Of a stretch of 64,000 nt of DNA, positions 3,181 to 60,923 are shown piece after piece. The notes beneath the pieces are model-generated. The model was not told where the DNA came from and made no database searches. It saw only the letters and a program-made list of their open reading frames with translations. How positions within the stretch are numbered: the stretch's first letter is position 1; each line of letters starts with the position of its first letter. The stretch comes from an uncultured Syntrophaceae bacterium (GTDB lineage: Bacteria > Desulfobacterota > Syntrophia > Syntrophales > UBA5619), in NCBI GenBank assembly GCA_964433455.1, contig CAYSSF010000001.1, positions 610 to 64,609 of the forward strand. Direction: 5' to 3'. The position numbers were made by a program, and so were the translations under genes.

Positions 3181-4454
3181 TCGTCTTCGCGACCACCTTT
3201 GTCGGACTGCTGTGCCTCTCCGCCCCTATTATTGTGGCTCTCGGCGGCTGCTCTCTCGCCTATGCCCTCTTCAGCGGAAACATGCCGGTCACCACGCTGA
3301 TTCAAACCATCTTCGGCGGTCTGGCCACCTTTCCGCTGCTCGCCATCCCATTGTTCATGCTGGCCGGAAATCTGATGAACGAGGGGGGGATCACAGAGGA
3401 GCTGATCCGCTTCGCCCGTCTGCTGCTGGGCCACATCCGGGGAGGACTGGGCCACGCGACGATTCTTGCCTGCGCGATCTTTGCGGCGATCACCGGGGCG
3501 GCGGTGGCAACCGCCGTGGCCATCGGCATGGTGATGATCCCGGCGATGAAGAAGGCCGGATATGACGAGGAAGTGGCCGGCGCGCTGACCTGCACGGCCG
3601 CCTGCATGGGGCCCGTCATCCCGCCCAGCATCCCGTTCATCATCTATGGCGTCACGGCCAACGTGTCGATCGGCGCGTTGTTTCTGGGCGGCGTCCTCCC
3701 CGGCCTCCTGTTGGGCGCCGCGCTGATGATCTATATTTACTTTCTTGCGGCCCGACGCAAATATCCCCGCGACGCGAAGGCGCCCATCAGGGAACTCCTC
3801 ATCGCCGCATCGAAGGCGGTTCCGGCGCTGTTCATGCCGGTGCTGATCCTGGGCGGCATCCTGGGCGGCATCTTCACCCCCACCGAAGCGGCAGGCGTCG
3901 CGGTGGTCTACGCGTTGATCGTGGGGATGATCATCAACCGGAAGCTGGGTTTCAACGACCTTCCGAAGGTCTTTCTAAGGGCCGGGCTGGAATCGGGGAT
4001 GGTGATGATGCTGATCGCGATGTCGGAGCCGTTTGCGTGGATCATCGCGGTGGACCAGATCCCCCAGCTTCTGATCGACTGGATCTCCTCACTGACGGCA
4101 TCGCCCTGGCTGATCCTGCTGTTCATCAACCTCTTCCTGCTCCTCCTCGGGATCCCGCTGGAGACCGCCCCCGCGTTGGTCATCGTGACGCCCGTGCTGG
4201 CGCCCATTGCCGTCCATCTGGGGATCGACCCGGTGCACATGGGGATCGTCATCTGCCTGAATCTGGTTCTGGGATTGATCACGCCGCCGGTGGGCGCGGT
4301 GCTCTTTGCGGTCTGCGGCGTCACCGGAATGTCCCTCGACCGCCTCAGCCGGGCGATCTGGCCCCCCTTTCTGGTCTCACTGGCGGTCCTGGCCGTGGTC
4401 ACCTATATCCCCTGGCTGAGCACCTGTCTGCCCAGGCTTTTCCTGGGCCGCTAA
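3177..4454 (+). CDS. dctM: TRAP transporter large permease (DctM family)
   Basis: 425-aa polytopic membrane protein with 'LAIPLFMLAGNLMNEGGIT' and 'TPPVGAVLF'. Confidence 0.93.
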   Translation: MIVFATTFVGLLCLSAPIIVALGGCSLAYALFSGNMPVTTLIQTIFGGLATFPLLAIPLFMLAGNLMNEGGITEELIRFARLLLGHIRGGLGHATILACAIFAAITGAAVATAVAIGMVMIPAMKKAGYDEEVAGALTCTAACMGPVIPPSIPFIIYGVTANVSIGALFLGGVLPGLLLGAALMIYIYFLAARRKYPRDAKAPIRELLIAASKAVPALFMPVLILGGILGGIFTPTEAAGVAVVYALIVGMIINRKLGFNDLPKVFLRAGLESGMVMMLIAMSEPFAWIIAVDQIPQLLIDWISSLTASPWLILLFINLFLLLLGIPLETAPALVIVTPVLAPIAVHLGIDPVHMGIVICLNLVLGLITPPVGAVLFAVCGVTGMSLDRLSRAIWPPFLVSLAVLAVVTYIPWLSTCLPRLFLGR

Positions 4455-4483
4455 GGAAGAGCCTGACCGGAAGACTTCGCGTC

Positions 4484-5257
4484 CTATCTGGCGTGGAATG
4501 TCTTGTTGTGACGGCGCAACCGTTCCACTATTTTTTCCACGGAGGAAACGGTGAGAAGCCTTTTCTCCACGAAGTACCTGCCAATGCGGGGCTGCATCAG
4601 GCGCTGCCACCCCAGAATCAAACGGAGCTCATCCGGCGTCAGATAGCCGCCGCGCAATGCAACCTCTCCGAACTTTTCCCCCCACCGGCGCTGCTTCAGG
4701 ATTTCCCGGAGATCGGCTTCATACAGCCATCCCCATCGCAGGGCGATATTGCCGACCAGCGGACGCCGGACCTTCTGCCAAAGAATGGCATCGATCAATT
4801 GCCGATATGAAATATAACCGGAATAATGCACGAATTGCCCAAACAGAAGCACCCGTTTGGGCAGCGTCCCCATGAAAAAATCGCGCCGGACATCTTCCGG
4901 CGACGCACCGGTCCGTTTTGTCTGCGTTCCGGCCCAGGTGCGCATCCGCTCTGAAGGTGGATACGGTCTTTTCCGGAAAGAATCGTCGATCAACCTGAAC
5001 CGCCAGGGGTTCTCAAGATAATCCTGTAACTCCCGATAGGCGGCATTGACCTCCTTGAACCGCTCTTCCAGATCGGCGGGCAGACGGGCAAGGGCAACCG
5101 CCCGGTCCGGGTGGGTCTCGAGGGCCCTTTCCCGATACGCCGCCTTGAGCCCCGGCATCCGGAGATAGCGGAGAAAATCGGCCGAAACGTCGATTCCCGA
5201 TCCGAAGAGGACGTGACAGGCATGATACAGTTGCGAAGAGTTGATTTCCGTTTCCAT
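4484..5257 (-). CDS. J-domain protein with four C-terminal MshEN/T2SSE_N-like 24-residue repeats
   Basis: J-domain 'LKAAYRERALETHPDR...FKEVNAAYRELQDYL' with HPD motif. The C-terminus carries repeats of the type xxGxxxxxxGxxxxxxLxxxLxxQ. ATG 5257 has an AGGA upstream; TTG 5293 is an alternative start. Confidence 0.75.
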   Translation of the reverse strand: METEINSSQLYHACHVLFGSGIDVSADFLRYLRMPGLKAAYRERALETHPDRAVALARLPADLEERFKEVNAAYRELQDYLENPWRFRLIDDSFRKRPYPPSERMRTWAGTQTKRTGASPEDVRRDFFMGTLPKRVLLFGQFVHYSGYISYRQLIDAILWQKVRRPLVGNIALRWGWLYEADLREILKQRRWGEKFGEVALRGGYLTPDELRLILGWQRLMQPRIGRYFVEKRLLTVSSVEKIVERLRRHNKTFHAR

Positions 5258-5371
5258 CCGTCCTGCTTTCAAGACTGTTCCGACTTTTGGCAAGTCCCGC
5301 CTGGTTGATGCAAATTATATGCGACACAGGCAAAAAAAGCGATAACAGAAAACGGAACCCCCCCTTTCGGT

Positions 5372-7096
5372 CTAACCCTCCAGAACCTCCCGCACTTTCT
5401 GTGAGAGGTCGGCGATTTTGAAGGGTTTCTGGATGAAGCCGTTGCAGCCTTTCTCCATGATCCTCCGCGCTTCGCCGTCAACACTGTACCCACTGGAAAG
5501 GATCACCTTGAGGTCGGGATCGATGTCCCGCAGGGCTTCGAAGGTTTTTCCCCCTCCCATCCCCGGCATGATCAGGTCCAGGATGACCAAGTCGATCTCG
5601 CGGCCCTTCTCCATGTAGAGCGCGATCGCCTCCTGCCCGCATCCCGCAATCATGACCCGATAACCCAGACTTTCCAGAATTTCCTTGGTCACGGCGATGT
5701 TGTTCTTCTCATCATCCACGAGCAGGATCGTCTCCCGGCCCGACAGGATCTTCTGCTCTCCTGTCGCCTCCCGGAACGCCATCGTTTTGCTCGACGCAGG
5801 AAGATAGATGTCGAACCTCGCCCCCATCCCCGGCTCGCTTTCCACCGTGATGAAACCGCCATGGTTTTCTATGATGCCGTAAACGGAGGCCAAACCCATG
5901 CCTGTCCCATGTCCGGTTTTTTTCGTCGTGAAAAAGGGTTCGAAGATGCGTTCCTTCGTTCTCGCGTCCATTCCTATCCCCGTATCCGTCACGGAAATCT
6001 TCACATATCCCCCCGGTTGCAGCCCACGGGGTTTGACCGCCGGTTCGTCAAGCGCCACATTCCGTGTCGCCAGGGACAAATCTCCGCCCTCGGGCATCGC
6101 CTGCCAGGCGTTGATATAGAGATTCAAAAGGACCTGCTCGATCTGTCCCTGATCCGCCTCAACCAACCACAGTCCGTTCTCGAATTCATGATAAACCGAG
6201 AGTTCCTTGTGTGTGCAGATGAATATGTCGAAACTCTTTTCGATGACATGGTTGAGGTTTGTCGGTTTGACCTCGTATTTTCCCCCCCGTCCGAATCCCA
6301 GCAGTTGTCTGGTCAGGCGGGCCCCGCTGCCGACCTGTTCCTCGATCTTCTGAAGCCGGACATGATGGGGATGATCCGGCGGCAGATCCATCTGCATCAG
6401 GGAAGTGTACCCCTGGATGCCAGCAAGAATATTGTTGAAATCATGGGCAATCCCCCCGGCAAGCGTACCGATCGCCTCCATTTTCTGGCTCTGCAGGAGT
6501 TGGTCCTGGATCAGTTTCCGTTCGCACTCCAGATGTCTGCGCTCCGCCAAATTCCGCTCCATCTGATTGTAGAGCAGCGCGTTGTCAAGGGCGATCGATG
6601 CGAGTTCCGCCAGCCGTTCGAGCATGGCCAACTCGTCTTTTTCAAACGGCCGCCCGAACCGATAATGGGCCAGGCCGAGAATTCCTGCCACGCGGTTTCC
6701 GGATTTCAGCGGGACGGCCGCCGTGGAATGGCGCATGGCGTAATGATCGATGTTCGCCCGCCCGGACCAGTTGCTGTAGTCCTCGATATAAACCGTGCCG
6801 CCCGTGCGCCAAACCTCTCCGGAGATTCCTCGGGAGGTCTCGAAACGCGATCCGACCATATCGGCGATCCGGCCGATCGCCGCCTTGAATTCCATATCGT
6901 CCGTCAGGGGGTCATAAACGTTGACCCACCCTTCATCGGCGCCGAACAGGTGGGTCGCCCGTACGACAATGGCTTGAAACAGCTCCCCCAGGTCCATGCG
7001 CCGCATCAGGTCCAGGGTGGTTTCATGGAACGCTTCGAGGTACGAATTCTGACGCCGCAAGGCTTCCTCGGTTTTTCTGCGCTCGTTATCCTGCAA
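5372..7096 (-). CDS. Hybrid sensor histidine kinase (GAF-HisKA-HATPase-REC)
   Basis: 574 aa. N-terminal GAF-like region, H-box 'GIAHDFNNIL', 'TDTGIGM' and 'GTGMGLA' ATP-lid motifs, and a C-terminal receiver 'ILLVDDE...LDLIMPGMGG'. Confidence 0.9.
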   Translation of the reverse strand: MQDNERRKTEEALRRQNSYLEAFHETTLDLMRRMDLGELFQAIVVRATHLFGADEGWVNVYDPLTDDMEFKAAIGRIADMVGSRFETSRGISGEVWRTGGTVYIEDYSNWSGRANIDHYAMRHSTAAVPLKSGNRVAGILGLAHYRFGRPFEKDELAMLERLAELASIALDNALLYNQMERNLAERRHLECERKLIQDQLLQSQKMEAIGTLAGGIAHDFNNILAGIQGYTSLMQMDLPPDHPHHVRLQKIEEQVGSGARLTRQLLGFGRGGKYEVKPTNLNHVIEKSFDIFICTHKELSVYHEFENGLWLVEADQGQIEQVLLNLYINAWQAMPEGGDLSLATRNVALDEPAVKPRGLQPGGYVKISVTDTGIGMDARTKERIFEPFFTTKKTGHGTGMGLASVYGIIENHGGFITVESEPGMGARFDIYLPASSKTMAFREATGEQKILSGRETILLVDDEKNNIAVTKEILESLGYRVMIAGCGQEAIALYMEKGREIDLVILDLIMPGMGGGKTFEALRDIDPDLKVILSSGYSVDGEARRIMEKGCNGFIQKPFKIADLSQKVREVLEG

Positions 7097-23462: not shown

Positions 23463-23490
23463 TCAAGTTTTGGCCAGCAACTGCCGATAT
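23463..23490 (+). promoter_or_regulatory. Sigma-28 (FliA) promoter TCAAGTTT-N12-GCCGATAT
   Basis: The -35 and spacer length are identical to the flaG and fliD promoters in this window. Lies 40 nt upstream of the small ORF. Confidence 0.72.
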
Positions 23491-31182: not shown

Positions 31183-31210
31183 TAAAGTTACGAGCCCCCC
31201 GCGTCGATAA
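31183..31210 (+). promoter_or_regulatory. Sigma-28 promoter TAAAGTTA-N12-GTCGATAA (fliC)
   Basis: Close match to the TAAAGTTT-N11/12-GCCGATAA consensus. Leaves a ~155-nt leader before fliC. Confidence 0.8.
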
Positions 31211-31327
31211 GAGTATCGAACAGAGCGGAACGAAGCGGAGGGAGGTGAGAAAAAGGGGTAGCGGCAAGGGCGCCGGAATAGGGAACGACCGATTCCGGTT
31301 CAACGGCAACTCTCTGAAAAATTACAT

Positions 31328-32696: not shown

Positions 32697-32724
32697 TCAA
32701 GTTTCCGGCAATATTTTCCGATAA
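32697..32724 (+). promoter_or_regulatory. Sigma-28 promoter TCAAGTTT-N12-TCCGATAA (fliD)
   Basis: Read directly from the sequence, 25 nt upstream of the fliD ATG. Confidence 0.75.
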
Positions 32725-32748: not shown

Positions 32749-35700
32749 ATGGCCACAAACCTCATAAGCGGGCTTTCCAGCGGCATCGACTGGAAAACGA
32801 TGGTCGATCAGTTGATCGCCATAGACCACAGACGTGTCGATCTCGTTTCGAACAAGAAGACAACGGAGACGCAGAAGCTCTCGGAGTGGCAGTCGTTCAA
32901 TACCAAACTTCTCGCCTTGAAAACCGCCGCCGGCAACCTGAAGGACGCCGATGCGTTCAGTCTCTACACAGCCACGCTGACCACGGACAGTGCGACAGTC
33001 AAGGCGTCCGACCTGCTGACTGTCACGGCCTCAGCGAACGCTTCGATCGGCTCCTACGCATTGACGATCAACAGCCTGGCCCAGGCGCAGAAGATCTCCT
33101 CCGGATCATTCGCGAGTTTGTCCGACACCATCGGAGCCGGTCATGCAGGTGATTTCTTGATCAATGGAACGGTGATCCGTGTTGCGGCAACGGACACGCT
33201 GACCACGTTGAAGGACAAGATCAACGATGCCAATTCGGGCGCCAATCCGACAGGGGTCACAGCCGGCATTATCAGCTATGCGGCCGGTGATCACCGGCTG
33301 GTTCTGACCAGCGACAGCACGGGGGCCTCCGGCATCGGCCTTTTAAACGCGGGAGCGACCGACATCCTCAATCAGTTCGGCTTTACCGATACCAGCCGGG
33401 TCGCGAAAAACCACATCGCCGGAGGCGACAGAACGGACGCCTTCAGCAGCACCGCCGTCTCCATCCAATCATTGCTTGGGCTCTCAACCACCCAAACCTC
33501 CGGAGCAGGCGAGATCGTGATCAATGGTCAGGCCATTGCCGCCATTGATCTCAGTACGGATACGCTCGGCAGCCTGCAGACCAAACTTGCGGCTGCGGGA
33601 CTCACCGTCTCCATCACCAGTGAAACAGAGAGCAACCGGACCTCTTACCGGCTGATGGTCGCGGGGGCGGCCAATACCTATACGGACAGGAACAATATTC
33701 TTGAAACACTGGGATTGATCAAAGGCGGCGTTTCGGACGTGGCCGGCGTGGCCGGTGATGTTCCCAATACGACCGGCGGCGCCGTCATGACCGCGGACAC
33801 CCTGATCAAGGATATCGATGGCTACACAGGCTACCTGGATACGGACTACATCCATCTGGAAGGTACGGACACCAACGGGATCGCGGTATCGGACGATACG
33901 TTCGCGCTTTCCGAAACGACAACGGTCGGAGACCTGCTCGCGAAGATCCAGAGCCTGTTCGGCGATGTGACCGCATCGGTTATGGGCGACGGCAAGGTGA
34001 TGGTTGTGGACAACACCCCCGGTGCGACTCCCCTGGCGGTAACGATCGGCGTAAAGGATTCCGGGGGCGCGGCCGACGACACCCTCAAGTTGGACGCGGA
34101 CGGTCTCTTGGCCGGCATCACCCGGAAGCGGCAGATCGTGGCCGGATCGGATGCGTCCATCACGGTAGACGGCGTCACCGTCACCCGGTCGGACAATACG
34201 ATCGACGATATCATGGCCGGCGTCACGCTCAATTTGCTCAAGGCGGATGTCGGCACGACGGTGACGTTCAACATCGGCCGGGATATCGACGCGATTATGG
34301 CGAAGATGAACAGTTTTGTCTCCAGCTACAACGGCATTTCATCCTATATCCATACCCAGACCTCCTATGACGAAACGAAAAAAAAGGCGGGGGGACGGCT
34401 CTTCGGAGACGCGACGCTCGCCTCGGTTAAATCCGATCTGACCTCGCTCCTGGTCCAGCGGATCTGGGGCGTTTCTTCCGATTACGCCACCTTGGGTCTG
34501 GTGGGGATCAATGTGGACAAAGCAGGACAACTCTCCATCGACAACGGCAAGCTGCGCGGCTACCTGACCACGAACTTCAACGATGTTCAGAAGCTCTTCG
34601 CCGCCAGCGGGACAACCAGCGTGGGAACGCTTGAATATATCTCCCATGGGATCAAGGCCCAGCAGGGCGATTACACGGTTCATATCACGACAGCGGCCAC
34701 AAGAAGCACATCGGCGCCATCGGACAATACCAGCCTGAGCGGCGACGAAACGCTGACGATTGCCAGTGGGAGCAGTGCCGCAGTCATCGGCATGACCAGC
34801 GGAATGTCCATGGCCCAGATCGTAAATGCGGTCAACAGCGAACTGTCGACGAGCTACACGCAGATTCTGACCTCGGCCCAGCCGCTTTTCGCCGATGGCG
34901 GGCAGGCGGCGGCCATTACCGGATCAACGAAATGGAACAGCGTCTATGACGGCGCCGGCAGTTCGGCCAATCTGGCCGACGGCGACGTCATCTCCTTCAC
35001 GGGAACCTCCCGCAACGGCGCCATCCTCAACGGGTCCTACACGATTTCCGAAGTCGCCACGGACTCGGTCCAGGGGCTGCTTTCCGCGATCGAAACGACC
35101 TTCGGCAATGAAGTCACCGCAGCGGTCAACGCCTCCGGCCAGATTGTGCTGACCGACAAAACCCAGGGAAGCAGCAGTGTCGGGTTGACGCTGGTCACCA
35201 CGCAGGCCCATGACCTCGATTTCGGAACGGTCCTGACGACCAACACAGGCGCACAGCAGGGGCGCTACGCGATGGGGATCACCGCATCCGCCGATTCGGG
35301 CAACCACCTGATCCTGACCCACAACAGCTACGGCGCGGGGAACAGTTTCACGATCCGGCAGCAGAACAACCTCCTCTGGACCGGCGGCGACCAGACCGTC
35401 GACGATGGGGTGGACGTGGCCGGAACGATCAATGGGGAGGCGGCGACGGGTTCGGGGCAGGTGCTCAAGGGCAACAGCGGCGAGGCCAACGTGGATGACC
35501 TGTCGATCAAATATACCGGTTCTGCCGGCGGGGTTGACGCCGGAACGGTGAAACTCACGTTCGGCGTGGCGGAACTCTTTAACCGATCGCTGTTCAACAT
35601 CACCGATTCCCTGGAAGGCTACGTCTCTTACAAGCAGCAGTCTCTTCAGGGGAATATCAGCAGGTATGAGACCCAGATCGATGAAATGGAGGCCCGCCTG

Positions 35701-35835
35701 GACCTCAAGCGAGAGTTGCTGATCAACCGTTTTGTACAGATGGAGATGGCCATGCAGCAGGTCCAGAATCAGAGCAACTGGCTGGCGTCGCAAATCACCG
35801 TGGCGGCCAACGGTTGGGTAAAAAATACCAAATGA
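32749..35835 (+). CDS. fliD: Flagellar filament cap protein FliD (unusually long, 1028 aa)
   Basis: N-terminus 'ISGLSSGIDWKTMVDQLIAIDHRRVD' and C-terminus 'QIDEMEARLDLKRELLINRFVQMEMAMQQ', with a large central insertion. Confidence 0.9.
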   Translation: MATNLISGLSSGIDWKTMVDQLIAIDHRRVDLVSNKKTTETQKLSEWQSFNTKLLALKTAAGNLKDADAFSLYTATLTTDSATVKASDLLTVTASANASIGSYALTINSLAQAQKISSGSFASLSDTIGAGHAGDFLINGTVIRVAATDTLTTLKDKINDANSGANPTGVTAGIISYAAGDHRLVLTSDSTGASGIGLLNAGATDILNQFGFTDTSRVAKNHIAGGDRTDAFSSTAVSIQSLLGLSTTQTSGAGEIVINGQAIAAIDLSTDTLGSLQTKLAAAGLTVSITSETESNRTSYRLMVAGAANTYTDRNNILETLGLIKGGVSDVAGVAGDVPNTTGGAVMTADTLIKDIDGYTGYLDTDYIHLEGTDTNGIAVSDDTFALSETTTVGDLLAKIQSLFGDVTASVMGDGKVMVVDNTPGATPLAVTIGVKDSGGAADDTLKLDADGLLAGITRKRQIVAGSDASITVDGVTVTRSDNTIDDIMAGVTLNLLKADVGTTVTFNIGRDIDAIMAKMNSFVSSYNGISSYIHTQTSYDETKKKAGGRLFGDATLASVKSDLTSLLVQRIWGVSSDYATLGLVGINVDKAGQLSIDNGKLRGYLTTNFNDVQKLFAASGTTSVGTLEYISHGIKAQQGDYTVHITTAATRSTSAPSDNTSLSGDETLTIASGSSAAVIGMTSGMSMAQIVNAVNSELSTSYTQILTSAQPLFADGGQAAAITGSTKWNSVYDGAGSSANLADGDVISFTGTSRNGAILNGSYTISEVATDSVQGLLSAIETTFGNEVTAAVNASGQIVLTDKTQGSSSVGLTLVTTQAHDLDFGTVLTTNTGAQQGRYAMGITASADSGNHLILTHNSYGAGNSFTIRQQNNLLWTGGDQTVDDGVDVAGTINGEAATGSGQVLKGNSGEANVDDLSIKYTGSAGGVDAGTVKLTFGVAELFNRSLFNITDSLEGYVSYKQQSLQGNISRYETQIDEMEARLDLKRELLINRFVQMEMAMQQVQNQSNWLASQITVAANGWVKNTK

Positions 35836-37002: not shown

Positions 37003-37030
37003 TCAAGTTTATTTTACGGAATGCCGATAA
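37003..37030 (+). promoter_or_regulatory. Sigma-28 promoter TCAAGTTT-N12-GCCGATAA (flaG)
   Basis: Perfect -10 element. Lies 40 nt upstream of the flaG ATG. Confidence 0.78.
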
Positions 37031-37069
37031 GAGGATTGAAGAGGATAAAAAAGAGAGGAGGTGAAAAAG

Positions 37070-41548: not shown

Positions 41549-41854
41549 TCAAGCGATCGTGTCGATCAGAGATTCACTCAGCATCTTTGCCGCAACTTTT
41601 CCCGCATCGACCGCATAGTTTCCGCTTTCGATCCGATCCTTCAGCTCCCGGACCTTGTCCTCACGGACATCGGGAGTACGATCCAGAATCTGCCTGATCC
41701 GCTGGAACTCTTTGGCTTTAGCGGAGAGATCGACCCTTTCCGTGGCAACCGTTGCCCCACCGCCGACGGATTTGTCGCCTTCATTTCTGACCGGGTCGCT
41801 CTTCTGGTACTGCTGGATCCCCTGCGCCGTGGCATCTTTAATCTTCGTAATCAT
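41549..41854 (-). CDS. flgM: Anti-sigma-28 factor FlgM
   Basis: 'RVDLSAKAKEFQRIRQILD...VREDKVRELKDRIESGNYAVDAGKVAAKML'. Confidence 0.87.
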   Translation of the reverse strand: MITKIKDATAQGIQQYQKSDPVRNEGDKSVGGGATVATERVDLSAKAKEFQRIRQILDRTPDVREDKVRELKDRIESGNYAVDAGKVAAKMLSESLIDTIA

Positions 41855-45664: not shown

Positions 45665-46375
45665 TTATACCCGACCGACCCGGCTGACCGAAAGTTTGTC
45701 CTGGTCGGTGAGTGTCTGGATGATCTTTTGATAGGTTTCAAAGGAACGGTGAATATCAATCATCGCGGCCATTTCGTTGATGACGTTGACGTTGGACAAT
45801 TCGATTGAACCGGAAGAGATGTCGGGTCGGTCCACTTTACGGATGCCGGCGCTCCCGTCGTCGATATAGAGGCCTCCGCCGGCCTTTCGCAGGTTCTGAC
45901 GGTTGGCGAAGTCGACGATTCTCAGCTTGTCGATCTGGCTCTCGTCCGCAAAAACGGCGCCGTCGCCGGCAACATGGATTTTACCGCTTTTCAATGCAAT
46001 GAGGCCCCCTTCACCGACCACGGGGTCGCCGGCCTGGGTCACCAGTTGGTTTTGGCTGTTGACGGTAAAATCCCCTTTTCTGGTATAGGCCGGCCCCTCC
46101 TGGGTTTGCACGACGAAAAAACCGTCCCCCTGCAGGTTGAGATCCAGCGGATTGTCCGTTCTCTGGGAGATCCCCCGCGAAAAATCCACGACAAGGGCAT
46201 TAAGAGGGGCGGGATTGTCCCAAGGCTTGCTCTCCTCCTGGAGGGCCTTCAACACCAGAAGATGCTCCGCTTTGAATCCGGCCGTGGAGGCGTTGGCCAA
46301 ATTGTTGCTGATATGCTCCAACTGCACCATCTTTTGATCCATGGCCGCGGCCACCGCGGAAATGTCGTATGCCAT
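45665..46375 (-). CDS. flgF: Proximal rod protein FlgF
   Basis: 'SNNLANASTAGFKAE' and C-terminal 'HRSFETYQKIIQTLTDQD'. 236 aa. Confidence 0.88.
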   Translation of the reverse strand: MAYDISAVAAAMDQKMVQLEHISNNLANASTAGFKAEHLLVLKALQEESKPWDNPAPLNALVVDFSRGISQRTDNPLDLNLQGDGFFVVQTQEGPAYTRKGDFTVNSQNQLVTQAGDPVVGEGGLIALKSGKIHVAGDGAVFADESQIDKLRIVDFANRQNLRKAGGGLYIDDGSAGIRKVDRPDISSGSIELSNVNVINEMAAMIDIHRSFETYQKIIQTLTDQDKLSVSRVGRV

Positions 46376-46404: not shown

Positions 46405-46421
46405 ATGCAATTCATGTGCCA
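46405..46421 (-). promoter_or_regulatory. Sigma-54 promoter TGGCAC-N5-TTGCA (flgF operon)
   Basis: Perfect consensus with exact GG-N10-GC spacing. Lies ~30 nt upstream of the flgF ATG. Confidence 0.78.
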
Positions 46422-46520
46422 TTACAGTTTATTGCAAATGTTCCCATGTGGTTGCCAAAAAATAACCATCCGGGGGAAACCAATCGCGGCAGAAGGTGCC
46501 GGAATCTTTTTCCGATAAAC

Positions 46521-46808
46521 TCATTTCTGGACGGCTGCATCCCGATACCGGTTGTTGGCCGAATAGACAAAGGCAAGGATTTCGGAAACCGCTCTATACA
46601 GTTCTACCGGGATCTGTTCGTCGATATCCAGTTTGCTTAATATCTGGACAAGGGCGGGATCGCTCCGGAGCGGGATGCCATTTTTTCCCGCCAGTTCAAT
46701 GATCTTTTCCGCTATTGCGCCCCGGCCTTTCGCGACGACTTTCGGAGCGGCATCCTTCCGGCTGTCATATTTCAGCGCGGCAGCGATGATCGTTTCGGGG
46801 GTTTTCAT
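46521..46808 (-). CDS. Stand-alone FlhB C-terminal (CC) subdomain homologue (FlhX/YlqH-like)
   Basis: 'AAALKYDSRKDAAPKVVAKGRGAIAEKIIELAGKNGIPL...VELYRAVSEILAFVY' parallels FlhB after its NPTH site. There are no TM segments and no NPTH motif. Confidence 0.85.
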   Translation of the reverse strand: MKTPETIIAAALKYDSRKDAAPKVVAKGRGAIAEKIIELAGKNGIPLRSDPALVQILSKLDIDEQIPVELYRAVSEILAFVYSANNRYRDAAVQK

Positions 46809-47959
46809 ATGCTCACGTCGATGGAGTTACGAGTAAAAATGCTATGCTCATTCAGAAACTCCTGTTTCCATGACCCGATGTCCCGGTCCAGCACACATTG
46901 GAGAAGGCCGATGGCGTAATCGATTTCCGAGAGGGCATGACCCAGCGCCGGCAGGAGCGGCTGCATGAAATCGACCACCTCCTGATCCGGACATTTCAAC
47001 GTGCAGTGAACAATCCCTTCTCTGACCCCCATGTCCGCCGTTAGTTCGCCGAGAGCGTCCATGTCGAGAAAGAGGACGATACGGCACCCTCTTTCCGTAC
47101 CCTGTTCGTCATTTCCGCGGTCGGCCTCGATGAAGATCTCCTGCATTCTGATCCCACCGGGAAATTGAACCGGGATCTGCAGTGTAAACAAACCGTCCTG
47201 CTCTTGCGCCAACACATTGACGATCTGTAACGATTCGATGACTGTCGCGGCGCGATCGGCCAGATCGGCAAATCGCTTGAGCGGTGAGCCCTCCAGGTTA
47301 TCATCGCCAGAGGGGGTTGGGGCGGCTCTCCCTTCGGCAGAAATTTTCAGCAGAAGTTCCTTCAGAGAGGCGCCGCTCCTCTTCTCTTCGAGGAGAGAGG
47401 GATCCGACAAGGCCCGGAGCAGTCTCCGCTCGCCCGTCAGACCGAGGGCAATCACGTAATCCTTGAAGAACAGCGGGTCGGCGATATTGTCGTCGGTCAT
47501 GATCAGTTGGTTCAGTATCCTGTAAAGGCTCTGCCCCTCCGGCTTCGACAGGAAATGCAGCGGTGGATTTGGCGTTCCCTCATGGAACAGCGCCTTCAGT
47601 GAGGCGATCATCTCCTTCAGCGCGCCGGGATTGGATCGATAAAACTTCAAGAATTCATTGGTTCTGGATATCTCGATGTTTTCAGCGAAGACCGTCCGCA
47701 GCACAAGGGTCGGATGGAACTGCTCCACCTGGACCGTCAATGTTTCGCCGCTTTTCAGAGGCAGGAGGCTCTTCGCCAGCAGGGTGGAATTTTTGATCTG
47801 CAAGAGGGTCTGACCCTGATGGCTGTCACCCAGAACCCGGGCGTTCAGCCGCTCACCCAGAACGAGAGGCGGCAGCGGCGTCAGTTTCAAAACCTCCGCC
47901 ACTTTTTGCAGGGCTGTGGTTGTCCCTTGGGAGACGGAGGGTGCGATTGCGGTGGCCAT
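46805..47959 (-). CDS. FliK-like protein (Flg_hook-type C-terminal domain)
   Basis: The C-terminus 'RIVLFLDMDALGELTADMGVREGIVHCTLKC...LLPALGHAL' follows the FliK C-terminal pattern seen in the fliK fragment at 63418. Overlaps the next gene by ATGA. Confidence 0.6.
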   Translation of the reverse strand: MATAIAPSVSQGTTTALQKVAEVLKLTPLPPLVLGERLNARVLGDSHQGQTLLQIKNSTLLAKSLLPLKSGETLTVQVEQFHPTLVLRTVFAENIEISRTNEFLKFYRSNPGALKEMIASLKALFHEGTPNPPLHFLSKPEGQSLYRILNQLIMTDDNIADPLFFKDYVIALGLTGERRLLRALSDPSLLEEKRSGASLKELLLKISAEGRAAPTPSGDDNLEGSPLKRFADLADRAATVIESLQIVNVLAQEQDGLFTLQIPVQFPGGIRMQEIFIEADRGNDEQGTERGCRIVLFLDMDALGELTADMGVREGIVHCTLKCPDQEVVDFMQPLLPALGHALSEIDYAIGLLQCVLDRDIGSWKQEFLNEHSIFTRNSIDVSI

Positions 47960-47964
47960 CGGGC

Positions 47965-48267
47965 TTAAACCTGAATATCGATGTGATCGTTCTGTTTCAC
48001 TTGGCAGGAACTGTTCCCTTCCACGGCCTGCTCCGCCGACTCCTGATCCCGCGGATGTTCTTTCTGCTGCTTGTTCCCTTCATCATCGTCAACCGTTGCA
48101 TGGCGAATGGAATCGGATTCATTTACCTTTTTTCCCAATTTGCGCCGTTCCTGAGCGAGCTGACTCTCGAAATAGTGCTGCTGCATTTCGGGATGCCGCT
48201 GCTGGAGCTGCTGAATCCGGTCAATGACCTGCGATTGAAGCATCTGTCTCTCAATGGCGCTGACCAT
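47965..48267 (-). CDS. Sigma-28-dependent hypothetical protein (100 aa, Gln-rich helix plus acidic tail)
   Basis: ORF starts 37 nt after a strong FliA promoter. An AAGGGA RBS lies upstream. No recognisable family. Confidence 0.5.
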   Translation of the reverse strand: MVSAIERQMLQSQVIDRIQQLQQRHPEMQQHYFESQLAQERRKLGKKVNESDSIRHATVDDDEGNKQQKEHPRDQESAEQAVEGNSSCQVKQNDHIDIQV

Positions 48268-48303
48268 TTTGATCCCTTTCCGAAAACTTCAGTTGATATC
48301 AGT

Positions 48304-48331
48304 ATATCGGCACAGGAAGGGAGTCACTTTA
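48304..48331 (-). promoter_or_regulatory. Sigma-28 promoter TAAAGTGA-N12-GCCGATAT
   Basis: Read on the minus strand, between the fliA stop and orf100. Confidence 0.75.
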
Positions 48332-48372: not shown

Positions 48373-49077
48373 TCACTCTTTCAGCCTGCCGCGAAGATGC
48401 AGGATAGCCTGGGTATGCAACTGGCAAACCCGGGATTCGGTAAGATTGAGGATCAGGCCGATTTCTTTCATGGTCATCTCATCGTAATAATAAAGGGAAA
48501 TAACCAGTTTTTCCTTTTGGGGGAGCGCCTCGATCACCTCCTTGAGCCGGTGCTGGAGCTCTTTGCCGACAAACATCTCCAGCGGATTGCCCTTGTCAAC
48601 CGTTTCGAGCACCTCCGAAACACTGTGGGTCTCGATATAATCGGGAGTCAGATCTTCCTGACTGATCAGCGGGATCCCCTTGGTCGCATCCAGCAATTGG
48701 AAATACTGCTCCAGCGTGATCCCCAGATAATCGGCCACCTCCTCTTCATCGGGCGGACGTCCCAGTTTGTTTTGCAGGGCATGGAATGCCTTCTCCAGTT
48801 TACCGTCCTTGTGGCGGACGGATCGCGGCACCCAGTCCCGCAACCTCAATTCATCCAGCACGGCGCCCCGAATCCGGAAGCGCGCAAAGGTCTCGAACTG
48901 CACCTTCCTGGCGCTGTCAAATTTCTCAAGCGCCTCCATGAGCCCGATGATGCCGACGTTGACCAACCCTTCCCGATCCGCGGCATCGATCGGCAGCTTG
49001 AATGTCAATCGACCGACGACATTCTTCACGAGGGGGGCATATTTCAGGATCAGCGCATCACGCTCTTTTTTATCCAT
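48373..49077 (-). CDS. fliA: Flagellar sigma factor sigma-28
   Basis: Regions 2 to 4 are present, with the 4.2 HTH 'MTMKEIGLILNLTESRVCQLHTQAILHLR'. Confidence 0.95.
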   Translation of the reverse strand: MDKKERDALILKYAPLVKNVVGRLTFKLPIDAADREGLVNVGIIGLMEALEKFDSARKVQFETFARFRIRGAVLDELRLRDWVPRSVRHKDGKLEKAFHALQNKLGRPPDEEEVADYLGITLEQYFQLLDATKGIPLISQEDLTPDYIETHSVSEVLETVDKGNPLEMFVGKELQHRLKEVIEALPQKEKLVISLYYYDEMTMKEIGLILNLTESRVCQLHTQAILHLRGRLKE

Positions 49078-49081
49078 GGTC

Positions 49082-49951
49082 TTAATTAAAAAAACGGATC
49101 CCGCCGTTGCTTTCTCGCTCCGGTCTCGGCATGCAGAGTCTTTCCGCCACGGCCCTGAGGCACTTTACAGAAGGTGAATCGGGATACAGTTCGGCCAGAA
49201 GCCTCTGTTGCTTGACCCCCCGCTGAAGATTTTCGTCATAGGAGATATAACCGAGTTCTTCAATCGCCAGATTGAGGAAATGGTTGGTCGCCTGGGCCAA
49301 CCTCAGGAAGACCTCCTTGGCTTCGTTCGGCGACTTCACCATATTCACCAGCAGGCTGAACCGCTTTTTGGCGTGCCGCTGATAGAGGATCTTGATCAGC
49401 GCATAGGCGTCGGTCAGGGAGGTCGGTTCCGGCGTCACGACCACAATGGTCTCGCCGGCGACCATATTGAAATAGAGGACGTTGTCGTTGATGCCCGCGC
49501 TGGTGTCGATCAGAAGGAAATCCGGTCGCGTCTGCAAGGCGTTGAGTTCGTCCTGGAGGGTCAATTTCTGCGCCATCGACAAACTGGACATCTCCTGGAT
49601 CCCCGATGACGAGGCGAGAATCTTGATTCCACCGGGTCCGGTAACGATCGCTTCCCTGAGTGTTCTTTCACCCTTGAGAACATGGTAGAGGTTGTATTTG
49701 GGCGTCAACCCGAGGATCAGATCGATATTGGCCAGGCCGCAATCGGCGTCAAGGATCATTGTTTTTTTCTTCATCCCCGCAAGCAGATAGGCAAGATTGG
49801 CCGTGATATTGGTTTTCCCGACTCCCCCTTTGCCGCTCGTTATCGAAATGACGCATATCTCATTTTGATGCGCACCCCTTTTTCCCGGTGCTTCATCGGG
49901 CGCCGTCATCTTCTGTCCGGTGATTTGTCTAAGCATGGCCGCCTGGTCCAC
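49082..49951 (-). CDS. flhG: MinD-type ATPase FlhG (FleN/YlxH)
   Basis: Deviant Walker A 'SGKGGVGKT'. Positioned between flhF and fliA. Confidence 0.92.
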   Translation of the reverse strand: MDQAAMLRQITGQKMTAPDEAPGKRGAHQNEICVISITSGKGGVGKTNITANLAYLLAGMKKKTMILDADCGLANIDLILGLTPKYNLYHVLKGERTLREAIVTGPGGIKILASSSGIQEMSSLSMAQKLTLQDELNALQTRPDFLLIDTSAGINDNVLYFNMVAGETIVVVTPEPTSLTDAYALIKILYQRHAKKRFSLLVNMVKSPNEAKEVFLRLAQATNHFLNLAIEELGYISYDENLQRGVKQQRLLAELYPDSPSVKCLRAVAERLCMPRPERESNGGIRFFN

Positions 49952-49970: not shown

Positions 49971-51092
49971 TTAATTCAACCTGCTTTGAAGAATCAGCTT
50001 TGCAAGTCTCTCGGGACTTGCCCTTTCAATATCCCGCGGAACGTTCTGGCCGGTGGTCACGTGCGAGACCGGTTTCCCGATCTCATCGAGAACCTCGTAC
50101 AGGGGTCCGAAATGGTTGCACTCGTCCACCTTCGTGAGGATGAGACGATCAAAATTGAATATTCCGAAACGGTTTGCCGTATCCAGCAGATTTTCCCGGC
50201 TGGCAACGGGACTCAGGAGTAAAACCGTTTCCACGTCTGCATGGAGAATCGCCTTGAGATCGTTGAGCCCCCGATCGTCATTGTGGTTCCTGCCCGGCGT
50301 ATCCACGAGAATCATGTCTTTTTCGGAAAAGCCCGCCACGGAGCGCAGGAACGCCTCCTTTTCCGGGGCGACCTGGATGGGAAGCCCCATGATCTTTGCA
50401 TAAACCTTCAACTGCTCGACGGCCGCGATTCTGTAGGTGTCGGTCGTGATCATGCCGACCTTCATCTTTTTCTCAAGGCTGTAATGGGCGGCAAGTTTGG
50501 CCAGCGTCGTTGTCTTACCGACGCCTGTTGGCCCGATAAATGCTTTGATCCGCTGCTCTTTTCGCCCATTTTTCGCAAGGGAGCGGGCAATCAGATTTTC
50601 CGCGATGGCGGCGCTTTTTTCATAGGTGTCCCTCTCCTTTTGCACGTAATCCTTCTTCATCTTCTCCAGCAGTGCGGCCGCCTTGAAACGGGAAACACCG
50701 CCGGCGACCATTTTCGTGTAGAGACTCCTCATGTGAGCGGAATAGCGGATGGAGACCATATCCAGCAGGAGGTTCATCGTCTCTTTAAGCTCTAAAAGCT
50801 CGCGCCGACGGGGAAATTCCTGTTTCAGCCCCTCGATTCCCGATTTGAGTTCGTGAATCTCCATTTCAAGACAGGAGAGCGGCTCAGACAGCCGCACCTC
50901 TTTACGGTGAGACGGTGCCTCCGGAAACACGGAAGGTTCCGTTTTTTCATCCCTGGCGGCGAGCACCTCAATCCGGGGAGGGTTGTCCGATATCCTGCCG
51001 GTTGACAAAATGATCGCATCCGGACCGAGCTCCTTCTTGATTCTGACCGTCGCCTCATGCAGATTGGCCGCTTCATAGCGTTTGATTTGCAT
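49971..51092 (-). CDS. flhF: SRP-type GTPase FlhF
   Basis: MQIKRYEAANLHEATVRIKKELGPDAIIL, 'GPTGVGKTTT' and 'DTPGR'. ATG 51092 abuts the flhA stop. Confidence 0.92.
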   Translation of the reverse strand: MQIKRYEAANLHEATVRIKKELGPDAIILSTGRISDNPPRIEVLAARDEKTEPSVFPEAPSHRKEVRLSEPLSCLEMEIHELKSGIEGLKQEFPRRRELLELKETMNLLLDMVSIRYSAHMRSLYTKMVAGGVSRFKAAALLEKMKKDYVQKERDTYEKSAAIAENLIARSLAKNGRKEQRIKAFIGPTGVGKTTTLAKLAAHYSLEKKMKVGMITTDTYRIAAVEQLKVYAKIMGLPIQVAPEKEAFLRSVAGFSEKDMILVDTPGRNHNDDRGLNDLKAILHADVETVLLLSPVASRENLLDTANRFGIFNFDRLILTKVDECNHFGPLYEVLDEIGKPVSHVTTGQNVPRDIERASPERLAKLILQSRLN

Positions 51093-51093
51093 A

Positions 51094-53172
51094 TCAGCCT
51101 TCCACCATTCCGAGTGATGTAATGTTTGTATCCGAAGTGATTTCATTATGGGCAAGAACAACGATATTCGGGAAGAAACGTTCCATGATTTTTCTCAAGT
51201 GAATTCGTGTATTGGCAGAGGTCAGCACGATAGGCGGGAGCCCTTTGGATGTGAAACTTCCCACGATTTTTTGGGTGCTTTCGATGAACGTTCTGACCAT
51301 GCCCGGGTCAGGAGAGACGAAGGACTCATACTCCGTATGCTGAATGGAACGGTTGATCACATCCTCGACCGTTGGAGAAACCATCATCACATGGATGGTG
51401 TTATCTCGATCACGGTATTGCCGGGTAATGGTACGGCTTAGGGATTGCCTAACATATCCTGTCAGGATGTCTACATTTTTTGTCATAGGAACATAATCGG
51501 CCAGTGTTTCGATGATCGTCAACATGTCGCGGACTGAGACCCTTTCCCTCAAAAGCCGCTGCAACACCTTTTGAAGCGTTCCCAGCGGGACCGCCTTGGG
51601 AACGAGATCCTCGATCACTTTCGGGTGGTTGGCGGCAAGGCTGTCGATGATGGCCTGCACCTCCTGCCGGCCAAGCAGTTCGTCAAAATGGGACTTGACG
51701 ATTTCGGTAATATGGGTGGTGATCACGGTTGCCGTATCGACGACAACGATCCCCCGGCCCTGAACGGTTTCGGCTTCTCTTTCCGGGATCCATACGGCAG
51801 GAAGGCCAAAGGCCGGCTCCCTGGTTGAAATACCGGCAATTTTCAAACCGCCCTCCTCCGGGAGGATCGCAAGCCGATGATCGAGAAGCAACTCCCCTCG
51901 AGCAAGTTCCGCCCCTTTCATCAGGAAAGAATATTCATTCGGCTTGAGTTGGAGGTTGTCCCGAATATGGACGGCCGGCATAATGAACCCCATTTCGGAC
52001 GCCAGTTGTTTCCTCAATGCCTTGATTCTGTGGAGAAGTTCTCCCCCCTGGGAGGTATCCACCAGAGGGATCAGTCCATAACCGACCTCGAGACAGAGGG
52101 GATCCAGAGGAATCAGCAGGTCCACCGGGGCCTCCGCGGCCGGGACCGGGGCGGCTTCCTCTTCCGTCTCTGCCGATTCCTTCCCCGATTGAAAAAGGTT
52201 GTAGGCGAGAAACGCCATCAGGGAGGCAACGATGATGAATGCCACCTTGGGCATGCCCGGAATCAACGCAAAGGTGAAGAGTACGATTGCAGAAAGCGCA
52301 ATCGCCTTGGGATGGGTAAAGAGCTGTTTTTTCATCTCTTCGCCCAGTTCTCCCGATGCGGTGGTTCTGGTCACCAGCATGCCGGCAGCCGTGGAAACGA
52401 TCAGCGCCGGCACCTGCGACACCAGGCCGTCTCCGACCGACAGGAGCGTGTAGGTCCGGGCGGCGTCCGCCAGGGCCATGCCCTGTTGCATCACCCCGAC
52501 GATCAGGCCGCCGATGATATTGACCAGAACAATGATGATGCCGGCGACCGCATCGCCGCGAACAAATTTACTGGCGCCGTCCATTGCGCCGTAGAAATTG
52601 GCCTCGGTTTCGATCTCGCGGCGGCGGCGGCGGGCATCGGCGTCGGAAATCAATCCCGTATTCAAATCGGCGTCGATGCTCATCTGTTTGCCGGGCATCG
52701 CGTCGAGGGTAAATCGCGCCGCCACTTCGGCGATCCTCGTCGCCCCCTTGGTGATCACGACAAAGTTGATGAGGACCAACACGCAGAAAACAATCATCCC
52801 GACGATGTAATTGCCTCCGACCACAAAGCTTCCGAACGCTTTAATGACCTGCCCGGCAGCCCCTGTTCCCTCGCTTCCATGAAGCAGGATCAACCGCGTC
52901 GAAGCCACGTTCAGGGAGAGCCGAAGCAGGGTCACTGTCAGCAATACTGAAGGAAATGCAGAAAAATCAAGTGGTTTCATCACATACATCGACATGAGCA
53001 AGATGATGATCGAAACGGTGATGCTGAAGGAAAGCAGGATGTCCAAAATGGATGTCGGCAGGGGAACCAACATGACCAGCAGGATTCCGATGACGCCCAT
53101 CGCCAGCATCGCGCTGCTTCCTGCCGTGATGGATGAAAGGACGCTTCTTTTAACAGCGATCGCTTGGGCCAT
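51094..53172 (-). CDS. flhA: Flagellar export gate protein FlhA
   Basis: 692 aa with 'FVRGDAVAGIIIVLVNIIGG', 8 TM segments and a cytoplasmic domain. Confidence 0.97.
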   Translation of the reverse strand: MAQAIAVKRSVLSSITAGSSAMLAMGVIGILLVMLVPLPTSILDILLSFSITVSIIILLMSMYVMKPLDFSAFPSVLLTVTLLRLSLNVASTRLILLHGSEGTGAAGQVIKAFGSFVVGGNYIVGMIVFCVLVLINFVVITKGATRIAEVAARFTLDAMPGKQMSIDADLNTGLISDADARRRRREIETEANFYGAMDGASKFVRGDAVAGIIIVLVNIIGGLIVGVMQQGMALADAARTYTLLSVGDGLVSQVPALIVSTAAGMLVTRTTASGELGEEMKKQLFTHPKAIALSAIVLFTFALIPGMPKVAFIIVASLMAFLAYNLFQSGKESAETEEEAAPVPAAEAPVDLLIPLDPLCLEVGYGLIPLVDTSQGGELLHRIKALRKQLASEMGFIMPAVHIRDNLQLKPNEYSFLMKGAELARGELLLDHRLAILPEEGGLKIAGISTREPAFGLPAVWIPEREAETVQGRGIVVVDTATVITTHITEIVKSHFDELLGRQEVQAIIDSLAANHPKVIEDLVPKAVPLGTLQKVLQRLLRERVSVRDMLTIIETLADYVPMTKNVDILTGYVRQSLSRTITRQYRDRDNTIHVMMVSPTVEDVINRSIQHTEYESFVSPDPGMVRTFIESTQKIVGSFTSKGLPPIVLTSANTRIHLRKIMERFFPNIVVLAHNEITSDTNITSLGMVEG

Positions 53173-60563: not shown

Positions 60564-60579
60564 AGCAAGGAATATGCCA
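60564..60579 (-). promoter_or_regulatory. Sigma-54 promoter TGGCAT-N5-TTGCT (motA operon)
   Basis: Exact GG-N10-GC spacing. Lies ~58 nt upstream of the motA GTG. Confidence 0.65.
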
Positions 60580-60674: not shown

Positions 60675-60923
60675 TCAAATCCATATGTCGATCCATCTCC
60701 CCTTGGTCTGAACGGACCCATCGGTGCGGATCGGATATGGGGTTTGTCGACGGAGCGTGGGTTGATCGCTGTCGGCGTGAATTTCTACATAATCGATGAT
60801 CTCCCCGGAGGCCCCGGGCGTGGGGACATGAAAGGAGCGCCGAGACGGCGTAACGGAGAGAGGAGCGTCCCCCGCCGTGATGACGGCAGGATAGAAGCTG
60901 TAATCGGAGTGTCGGATCTCCAT
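60675..60923 (-). CDS. Hypothetical 82-aa protein at the position usually occupied by flbD
   Basis: The only ORF in the 560-nt flgE-motA gap. It shows a weak FlbD-like pattern ('F.V...GEIIDYVE...D...TL...Y.IR') and GC-rich third codon positions. The composition is Pro/Arg-rich, so the call is low confidence. Confidence 0.33.
   Translation of the reverse strand: MEIRHSDYSFYPAVITAGDAPLSVTPSRRSFHVPTPGASGEIIDYVEIHADSDQPTLRRQTPYPIRTDGSVQTKGRWIDIWI

Follow-up and report, generated by a model that had tools for sequence, protein, structure and literature searches.

The orf100–fliK2–flhX genes of an uncultured Syntrophaceae bacterium: a predicted late-expressed mimic of the FliK–FlhB export switch

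Introduction

Three genes, orf100, fliK2 and flhX, follow fliA in a flagellar gene cluster on DNA from an uncultured Syntrophaceae bacterium (GenBank assembly GCA_964433455.1, contig CAYSSF010000001.1, positions 610 to 64,609 of the forward strand), a stretch of 64,000 nucleotides (nt) called the window below. On balance, they probably represent the local version of a widespread late-class fliK2–flhX operon, extended at its 5′ end by orf100, and their products, made late, would mimic the FliK-C/FlhB-CC switch pair in soluble form. All the features claimed for this locus in an earlier reading of the window, referred to here as the original prediction, were recovered in place on the minus strand. 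The canonical fliK and the NPTH-bearing, full-length flhB that it had reported elsewhere in the window were also confirmed by a Pfam scan (Flg_hook, 52 bits, and 441 bits, respectively).

How such a pair might act is best considered in the light of a 2026 Salmonella study, according to which the cleaved FlhB-CC actively holds the export gate in its early mode and, when the hook is complete, is lost in a process that depends on FliK; contact with FlhB-CC is proposed to be made by the five C-terminal residues of FliK, and a pause is attributed to the T3S4 fold (PMC13344023). An operon that supplies a free FlhB-CC after the switch, together with a T3S4 protein and another protein bearing the tail, would be a natural test of this inhibitory-lock model. 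It could reveal whether FlhB-CC occupancy is reversible and how bacteria that build their flagella sequentially protect new gates. The fliK2–flhX pair is widespread, with 3954 FliK2 cluster representatives at E ≤ 1e-3 in an exhaustive profile search (114 at E ≤ 1e-30) and a probable Bacillus counterpart, and it is FliA-controlled in Pseudomonas. Since the pair has already been described in that genus, the novelty of the core arrangement is low. What seems to be new is the Orf100 family, conserved upstream of the pair, and a C-terminal tail shared by Orf100, FliK2, FliK and FlgM; both are modestly new leads that offer concrete, mutable handles.

FlhX, a stand-alone FlhB-CC protein

The flhX gene (46521..46808, minus strand) encodes a protein of 95 amino acids (aa), and its start overlaps the fliK2 stop in an ATGA sequence (4 nt), as expected from the translational coupling that had been proposed for the two genes. 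In Pfam, FlhX matches only positions 259–335 of the 335 positions of Bac_export_2, i.e. the last 77 (E 4e-21). The best NCBIfam family is TIGR00789 flhB_rel (‘FlhB-like flagellar biosynthesis protein’; E 8e-31, model positions 2–82 of 84), with a score of 106.1 bits, 11 bits under the curated cut-off of 117.35. FlhX aligns to residues 268–353 of the window's FlhB and also to Escherichia coli FlhB from NPTH onward; in the FlhX/FlhB alignment, ‘KTPETIIAAALKY’ stands opposite ‘TNPTHLAVAIRY’ and TPET faces NPTH. NPTH is thus missing, and FlhX begins at the cleavage site. The protein is without a transmembrane domain, the FlhB-CN half or the NPTH motif and, judged by its sequence, reproduces the post-cleavage FlhB-CC subdomain alone, in soluble form. 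Its assignment in the original prediction as a stand-alone FlhB-CC protein of the FlhX type is upheld by both the Bac_export_2 match and the alignment from the NPTH site.

Sequence conservation indicates that this copy is maintained. The window matches a contig from a groundwater metagenome, and the related genomes are metagenome-assembled genomes (MAGs) bearing the labels Deltaproteobacteria, Syntrophus or Syntrophales. Between the window and five related MAGs, FlhX identity amounts to 72–82%, comparable to the 69–79% found for the FlhB-CC orthologues of the same genomes. Conservation as strong as that of FlhB-CC points to strong constraint and not to a remnant. A five-sequence alignment shows no variation at the positions that correspond to A286/P287 and L344 of E. 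coli FlhB. We take these positions to be part of the pocket that binds early substrates (the gate recognition motif, or GRM, pocket), whose residues in FlhB were reportedly described by Evans et al. in 2013.

The idea that FlhX is what remains of a duplicated, decaying flhB, flanked by spurious open reading frames (ORFs), has next to no probability and is already refuted by the conservation data: the small size of FlhX speaks for it, and nothing more does. The homologue search returned 1441 homologues of similar length, FlhX identity across MAGs (72–86%) equals that of the essential FlhB-CC, and gene order is conserved across phyla, including Bacillus. The 120 FlhX homologues listed are all close relatives, and the named Pseudomonas or Helicobacter FlhX proteins are not among them. 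In a tblastn comparison of FlhX with plasmids, matches in Pseudomonas silesiensis and Cupriavidus proved to be full-length FlhB, not FlhX; a true stand-alone copy was found only in a Bacillus velezensis record, to which we return below.

FliK2, a T3S4-domain protein of nearly constant length

The fliK2-like gene (46805..47959, minus strand; fliK2 hereafter) starts 5 nt past the orf100 stop and encodes 384 aa. Its own Flg_hook (PF02120) match, at aa 293–355, scores 19.2 bits, against a gathering score of 29.8 bits. Flg_hook is matched at E ≤ 0.01 by all 20 aligned FliK2 homologues (best 8e-8), and distant homologues score 29.8 and 37.5 bits, i.e. at or over the gathering score. Compared with the canonical FliK of the window, the FliK2 profile gave an E-value of 0.038 with the expected T3S4 core aligned; a sequence-profile search of the FliK2 alignment against the PDB returned no meaningful match.

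Structural models were more informative for the C-terminal domain than for the whole protein, the AlphaFold model of which (predicted local distance difference test, pLDDT, 59.7) had no significant global Foldseek match. When residues 225–384 (160 aa) were re-modelled by AlphaFold with 64 sequences, the pLDDT rose to 75.7 and exceeded 90 in the core blocks (model residues 81–140). A Foldseek comparison of this model covering 350,542 PDB chains gave as best match the PscP SS domain (5cuk; probability 1.00, template-modelling score 0.58, root-mean-square deviation 2.0 Å) and as second match Salmonella FliK-C (2rrl; probability 0.98). According to the model, FliK2 carries a divergent FliK-type T3S4 alpha/beta fold. 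The FliK-like C-terminus that had been assigned to the 384-aa protein is therefore borne out by the Flg_hook matches of its homologues and by the agreement of the domain model with both solved T3S4 domains.

The rest of the protein also appears to be folded. In the AlphaFold model, a small N-terminal beta domain of five strands (47690..47851, minus strand; aa 37–90; pLDDT about 63–73), for which an OB/S1-like nature finds weak Foldseek matches only, is followed by a helical middle and by the T3S4-like (Flg_hook) domain (46844..47203, minus strand; aa 253–372), with predicted disorder at about residues 1–24 and in short loops. Conservation extends along the whole chain in the homologue alignment, and 140 of the 184 apparently complete homologues are 360–399 aa long. 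The share of P+Q+S+T+A+G is 37%, versus 54% in E. coli FliK. On account of this folded chain, near-constant length and ordinary composition, FliK2 is not filed here as a canonical FliK ruler.

These properties bear directly on the first proposal made for the pair, namely that the cell secretes FliK2 as a second molecular ruler, to which FlhX belongs as a dedicated switch domain, and that the two provide an extra length-measured substrate-specificity checkpoint late in assembly. The T3S4 domain and a FliK-like tail are in keeping with it; about 24 poorly conserved, low-confidence residues at the N-terminus could be an export signal; and length can vary, since a minority of homologues reach 440–640 aa by means of tandem copies of the N-terminal beta domain. 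Nevertheless, the proposal is quite unlikely to be correct. The length distribution is narrow, the conserved chain is predicted to be folded instead of forming an extended low-complexity tape, no FxxxΦ gate recognition motif was seen on by-eye inspection of the FliK2 N-terminal region, no second hook-like structure is encoded nearby, and FlhX is without a membrane anchor for a gate of its own. A length-measuring function of FliK2 is thus not supported by the predicted structure, and this part of the original prediction did not stand.

The repeated beta domain is the sole length-variable element seen in the FliK2 family. A 599-aa homologue with three tandem N-terminal copies, for example, is encoded at 4001–5800 of locus L013, one of the more distant loci compared.

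Sigma-28-type promoter and limits of the operon

A sigma-28 (FliA)-type promoter, TAAAGTGA-N12-GCCGATAT (48304..48331, minus strand), lies in the 105-nt spacer between fliA (48373..49077, minus strand; TIGR02479 match, E 2e-73) and orf100. It is the single match to TAAA-N14-17-GCCGATA in 64 kb, where 0.07 would be expected. Comparison with related genomes supports the prediction: in loci L001–L005, TAAAG, 16 unconserved bases and CCGA(T/A)A are kept just 5′ of the orf100 homologue, and the fliA–orf100 spacer varies in length and sequence while the position of the motif and its 16-nt spacing stay constant. A motif retained with identical spacing amid unconserved sequence in five related genomes constitutes a phylogenetic footprint.

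The window provides further support in the form of sister promoters. The looser motif T[AC]AAG-N16-CCGA[AT]A occurs at four sites versus 0.10 expected, a number reached in none of 100 shuffles; one is the promoter before orf100, and the remaining three precede fliD, flaG and a response-regulator gene. Four further sigma-28-type sites, all on the plus strand, share the 16-nt spacing, and three of them have TCAAGTTT as the −35 element. They are found upstream of a response-regulator/GAF/HD-GYP gene (site 23463–23489, gene at 23870), of the flagellin gene fliC (31183–31210, gene at 31327), of fliD (32697–32723, gene at 32749) and of the FlaG-family gene flaG (37003–37029, gene at 37061). The flagellin site reads TAAAGTTA-N12-GTCGATAA, with one mismatch in its −10 element, GTCGATAA. 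Several matching sites at flagellar genes imply that the organism has a recognizable sigma-28 regulon, to which the orf100–fliK2–flhX operon would belong on sequence grounds. The strong promoter proposed after fliA is thus corroborated by consensus match, footprint and sister sites alike.

Gene order is retained as well. The order flhG–fliA–orf100–fliK2–flhX–flgF–flgG is kept in all six related loci, and fliK2 adjoins a co-oriented flhX in every related locus that covers the region. Three more distant contexts show a cassette made of a small protein, a DUF2802 protein, FliK2 and FlhX, which in two of them again lies between fliA and flgF; one FliK2-like gene has no FlhX nearby. In the two distant contexts read at the DNA level, the small protein is an orf100 homologue that starts with MVRxID, and TTAAGT-N13/14-GACGAT precedes it.

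Between fliA and FliK2, loci L011 (2620–5004) and L013 (1665–4001) encode a FliL-like protein, a DUF2802 membrane protein and a protein of 261 aa that matches HisKA weakly, none of which is present between fliA and fliK2 in the window. The Pseudomonas putida gene flrD (PP_4331), near fliK2–flhX, may be the counterpart of the DUF2802 gene.

An alternative view of transcription is that the three genes form the 3′ end of a class-II flhA–flhF–flhG–fliA operon, the sigma-28 motif being a minor internal booster or non-functional. The genes are indeed all co-directional with short gaps, a consensus scan of the region detected no terminator-like site between the fliA stop and orf100, and P. putida has several FliA-dependent internal promoters within long operons (10.1101/2021.08.29.457346). 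With no terminator between fliA and the promoter, read-through from the flhA–fliA operon is possible. Still, as the sole account of expression this view is distinctly improbable: in six loci the motif has kept its position and spacing amid sequence that is not conserved, a similar motif directly precedes the orf100 homologue in distant genomes despite the genes that intervene there between it and fliA, and the P. putida fliK2 promoter is strongly FliA-dependent (10.1101/2021.08.29.457346).

At the other end, a sigma-54-type promoter for flgF with an exact consensus, TGGCAC-N5-TTGCA (46406..46421, minus strand), lies between flhX and flgF and is kept in L001–L004, L006 and L011; this conserved site marks the downstream boundary of the module. 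A weak terminator-like hairpin (46487..46501, minus strand; consensus scan) follows 20 nt past the flhX stop, the count of terminator-like sites in the region not being above shuffled expectation.

The heptamer GCCGATA occurs 22 times in the window versus 6.5 expected, a number that none of the shuffles attains. Promoter-like sites account for only three copies, most of the others being inside long ORFs; codon or dipeptide usage is possibly the cause of the excess.

Orf100, the product of the first gene

The first gene, orf100 (47965..48267, minus strand), encodes a 100-aa protein with no match to a Pfam or NCBIfam family. Homologues are numerous (458 found); among the 120 matches listed, the source names are all ‘hypothetical’ or an evident mis-name, and none carries a Pfam domain, so that the description of the first gene product as a small protein of unknown family remains accurate. 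An orf100 homologue is found 5′ of fliK2 in L001–L005, L011 and L013. In the family, the N-terminal 45 residues (48133..48267, minus strand; aa 1–45) are conserved, as is the C-terminal H-I-D-I-(K/Q)-V, and the charged middle between them varies.

Export signals of early flagellar substrates consist of an N-terminal small-hydrophobic element and a downstream FxxxΦ gate recognition motif, exemplified in Salmonella FlgD by 2-SIAV-5 and 36-FLTLL-40; the two elements have to be some 26 residues apart or more (PMC8983047). The start of Orf100 resembles such a bipartite signal: 2-VSAI-5 and 33-FESQL-37 are conserved across the family alignment, their spacing fits the published rule, and M1, V2, Y32, Q36 and L37 are invariant. 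This is a resemblance of pattern only, the pattern being short and the candidate gate motif FESQL more polar than FLTLL of FlgD.

The possibility that Orf100 is FlgM was examined and discarded. No PF04316 match was obtained at E ≤ 1, and the bona fide FlgM of the window is encoded at 41549..41854 on the minus strand (68 bits).

A C-terminal pentapeptide shared by flagellar proteins

Orf100 and FliK2 end in a similar way. The last six residues of Orf100 are HIDIQV (tail I-D-I-Q-V, 47968..47982, minus strand) and those of FliK2 are SIDVSI (tail I-D-V-S-I, 46808..46822, minus strand). The shared motif is [IV]-[DNS]-[IVLT]-x-[AVI]-COOH; for counts among Orf100 homologues, the form [IVL][DNS][IVLT]x[AVILC] was used. 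The tail is present in 120 of 120 Orf100 homologues among the matches listed, in 82 of the 87 close FliK2 homologues found and in 89 of 143 distant FliK2 representatives. Ends in the FliK2 family include IDVCV, and many distant members finish with VNIFA or VDLFA, as does E. coli FliK with little change (GVDIFA, tail VDIFA); the canonical FliK of the window ends with RISIFA (tail ISIFA).

Within the window, the motif ends 5 of the 486 stop-to-stop segments of at least 60 aa in six frames. Each of these lies in the flagellar cluster; they are FliK, FliK2, Orf100, FlgM and orf82. FlgM ends with LIDTIA, and its tail is part of a conserved extension past the Pfam FlgM domain that reads LIDI(I/V)(A/V) in related MAGs (L001–L003 and L005, near 12.0–12.5 kb). 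The fifth segment, orf82 (60675–60923, minus strand), lies between flgE and motA and encodes 82 aa ending with WIDIWI, with no Pfam family assigned. It occupies the position held by FlbD in B. velezensis, and a sigma-54-like site, TGGCAT-N5-TTGCT, is located at 60579 between orf82 and motA.

Two readings of the tail were rejected or set aside. It is not a universal FliK feature, as the canonical FliK of B. velezensis ends with ...NEMEEE and is without the motif. A role of the FliK2 and Orf100 tails as mimics of the FlhB-CN beta-strand that precedes NPTH (ADVVITN) was left speculative, the resemblance being weak.

A bolder proposal, which is tentative and has a rather low probability in our estimation, sees in the pentapeptide a common docking tag for FlhB-CC-type domains, borne within the flagellar cluster by FliK, FliK2, Orf100, the FlgM of this lineage and perhaps orf82. 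Orf100 would then be a minimal, tape-less FliK, in which an export signal like that of early substrates and a motif like that for gate recognition are joined by a short disordered spacer, about 50 residues long, to a switch-flipping tail. The operon as a whole would be a complete soluble replica of the switch, with Orf100 as trigger, FliK2 as T3S4 partner and FlhX as target, used for resetting or locking gates after hook completion.

Proposed mechanism

The account favoured here, a late-expressed soluble mimic of the FliK-C/FlhB-CC pair, can be described as a series of steps. Release of FlgM would activate sigma-28 and thereby expression of orf100–fliK2–flhX. FliK2 and FlhX would form a cytoplasmic complex that copies the FliK-C/FlhB-CC contact by which the export switch is flipped, and FlhX may occupy the FlhB-CC site on cleaved FlhB, as does the Helicobacter ‘spare part’. 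FliK2, perhaps with Orf100, might hold, load or strip FlhX by means of the T3S4 domain and the tail, such that the operon would tune the early versus late mode of the gate in cells that already express late genes. In which direction it would do so can be imagined in several ways: the products could re-arm or stabilize the early mode at new gates, lock the late mode by capture of FlhB-CC, or buffer FliK. The passage from the same domains to a complex, and from a complex to gate occupancy, is in each case a step that we infer.

Several points weigh against this account. Read-through from the flhA–fliA operon may also feed the three genes; the Flg_hook score of the window's FliK2 is under the Pfam threshold, and the Foldseek E-values of the two T3S4 matches are marginal (0.04 and 0.09); and the tail motif is not universal, given its lack in the B. 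velezensis FliK. In addition, under the 2026 model of an inhibitory FlhB-CC, extra FlhB-CC after the switch seems counter-productive unless FliK2 restrains FlhX.

In another proposal, FlhX would never dock at the gate and would instead serve as a decoy or buffer, titrating in the cytoplasm the tails and T3S4 domains of FliK, FliK2 and Orf100 and, where sigma-28 has already become active, shielding nascent basal bodies from premature switching, in analogy with Salmonella Fluke. FlhX keeps the residues aligned with the conserved A-P...A..L positions of FlhB, the same tail is found on several proteins of the cluster, and under the 2026 model FlhB-CC has to be protected until the hook is complete (PMC13344023). 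Even so, such a role is unlikely. Helicobacter FlhX is reported to be able to replace FlhB-CC functionally (cited in 10.1101/2021.08.29.457346), which implies docking at the gate, and the translational coupling of FlhX to FliK2 suggests a fixed 1:1 partner and not a free sponge.

Relation to known systems

The closest described counterpart is the fliK2–flhX operon of P. putida, in which PP_4328 was named fliK2 for its FliK C-terminal domain and the co-transcribed PP_4329 was named flhX. A conserved FliA-consensus promoter is present; ectopic FliA stimulates FliA-consensus promoters, including PfliK2, 4- to 33-fold; PfliK2 is put in Class III in one figure and in Class IV in the discussion; and the function of the two genes is called uncharacterised (10.1101/2021.08.29.457346). 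As in P. putida, a Flg_hook-domain gene lies directly 5′ of a stand-alone FlhB-CC gene, beside the flhA...fliA block and with a FliA-consensus promoter. Unlike in P. putida, the pair of the window directly follows fliA on the same strand. It is preceded by orf100, its promoter is a predicted one, and the likeness to PP_4328 rests on the published description of that protein.

The name FlhX goes back to Pallen et al. 2005, and Helicobacter pylori FlhX is reported to replace FlhB-CC in part, in a ‘spare part’ role, both as cited in the P. putida paper (10.1101/2021.08.29.457346). In comparative studies, FlhX is listed as a standard accessory component of flagellar type III secretion (PMC10746217). 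The FlhX of the window resembles that of H. pylori (HP1575) in that both stand alone, are homologous to the post-cleavage FlhB-CC and have neither NPTH nor membrane segments; it is the H. pylori protein whose ‘spare part’ role has experimental support. The statement of the original prediction that it knew of no studied stand-alone FlhB-CC besides Helicobacter FlhX is outdated, as the P. putida operon was defined experimentally (10.1101/2021.08.29.457346).

With respect to the canonical FliK–FlhB system of Salmonella and E. coli, the likeness consists of a T3S4 fold paired with an FlhB-CC fold and of a tail resembling E. coli VDIFA. The differences are threefold: FliK2 has near-constant length and is without the long disordered ruler of FliK; FlhX, a soluble protein, cannot itself belong to the gate, unlike FlhB; and the pair of the window is predicted to be expressed after the switch and not before it.

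A more remote relative was found in B. velezensis (NZ_CP083716.1, locus L016), where a 93-aa FlhB-like gene in the position of ylqH overlaps by 4 nt a 567-aa gene in the position of ylqG. The C-terminal region of the YlqG-position protein aligns to the T3S4 region of FliK2 (hhalign E 3e-4), and the protein ends with VDVKI. This pair shares with that of the window the 4-nt overlap, the T3S4-like region and the type of C-terminal end. It differs in its location, which is beside rnhB and sucC and not within the fla/che operon, and YlqG differs from the FliK2 of the window in its length, in having no Pfam Flg_hook match and in its annotation as ‘glycosyl transferase’. That label on ylqG (L016 2274–3977) is likely a mis-annotation of a FliK2-type protein, as judged by alignment, and the FliK2–FlhX pair is probably ancient.

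Although labelled ‘plasmid’, record NZ_CP083716.1 bears ribosomal-protein genes and the fla/che operon, and it is thus probably chromosomal DNA.

Neighbouring genes and other observations

On the 5′ side of fliA, flhG (49082..49951) and flhF (49971..51161) are encoded on the minus strand. On the 3′ side of the module, flgF (45665..46375, minus strand) begins 145 nt beyond flhX. Elsewhere in the window, the fliD gene (32749–35835, plus strand) encodes an unusually long FliD of 1028 aa that contains a large insert besides its FliD_N and FliD_C domains.

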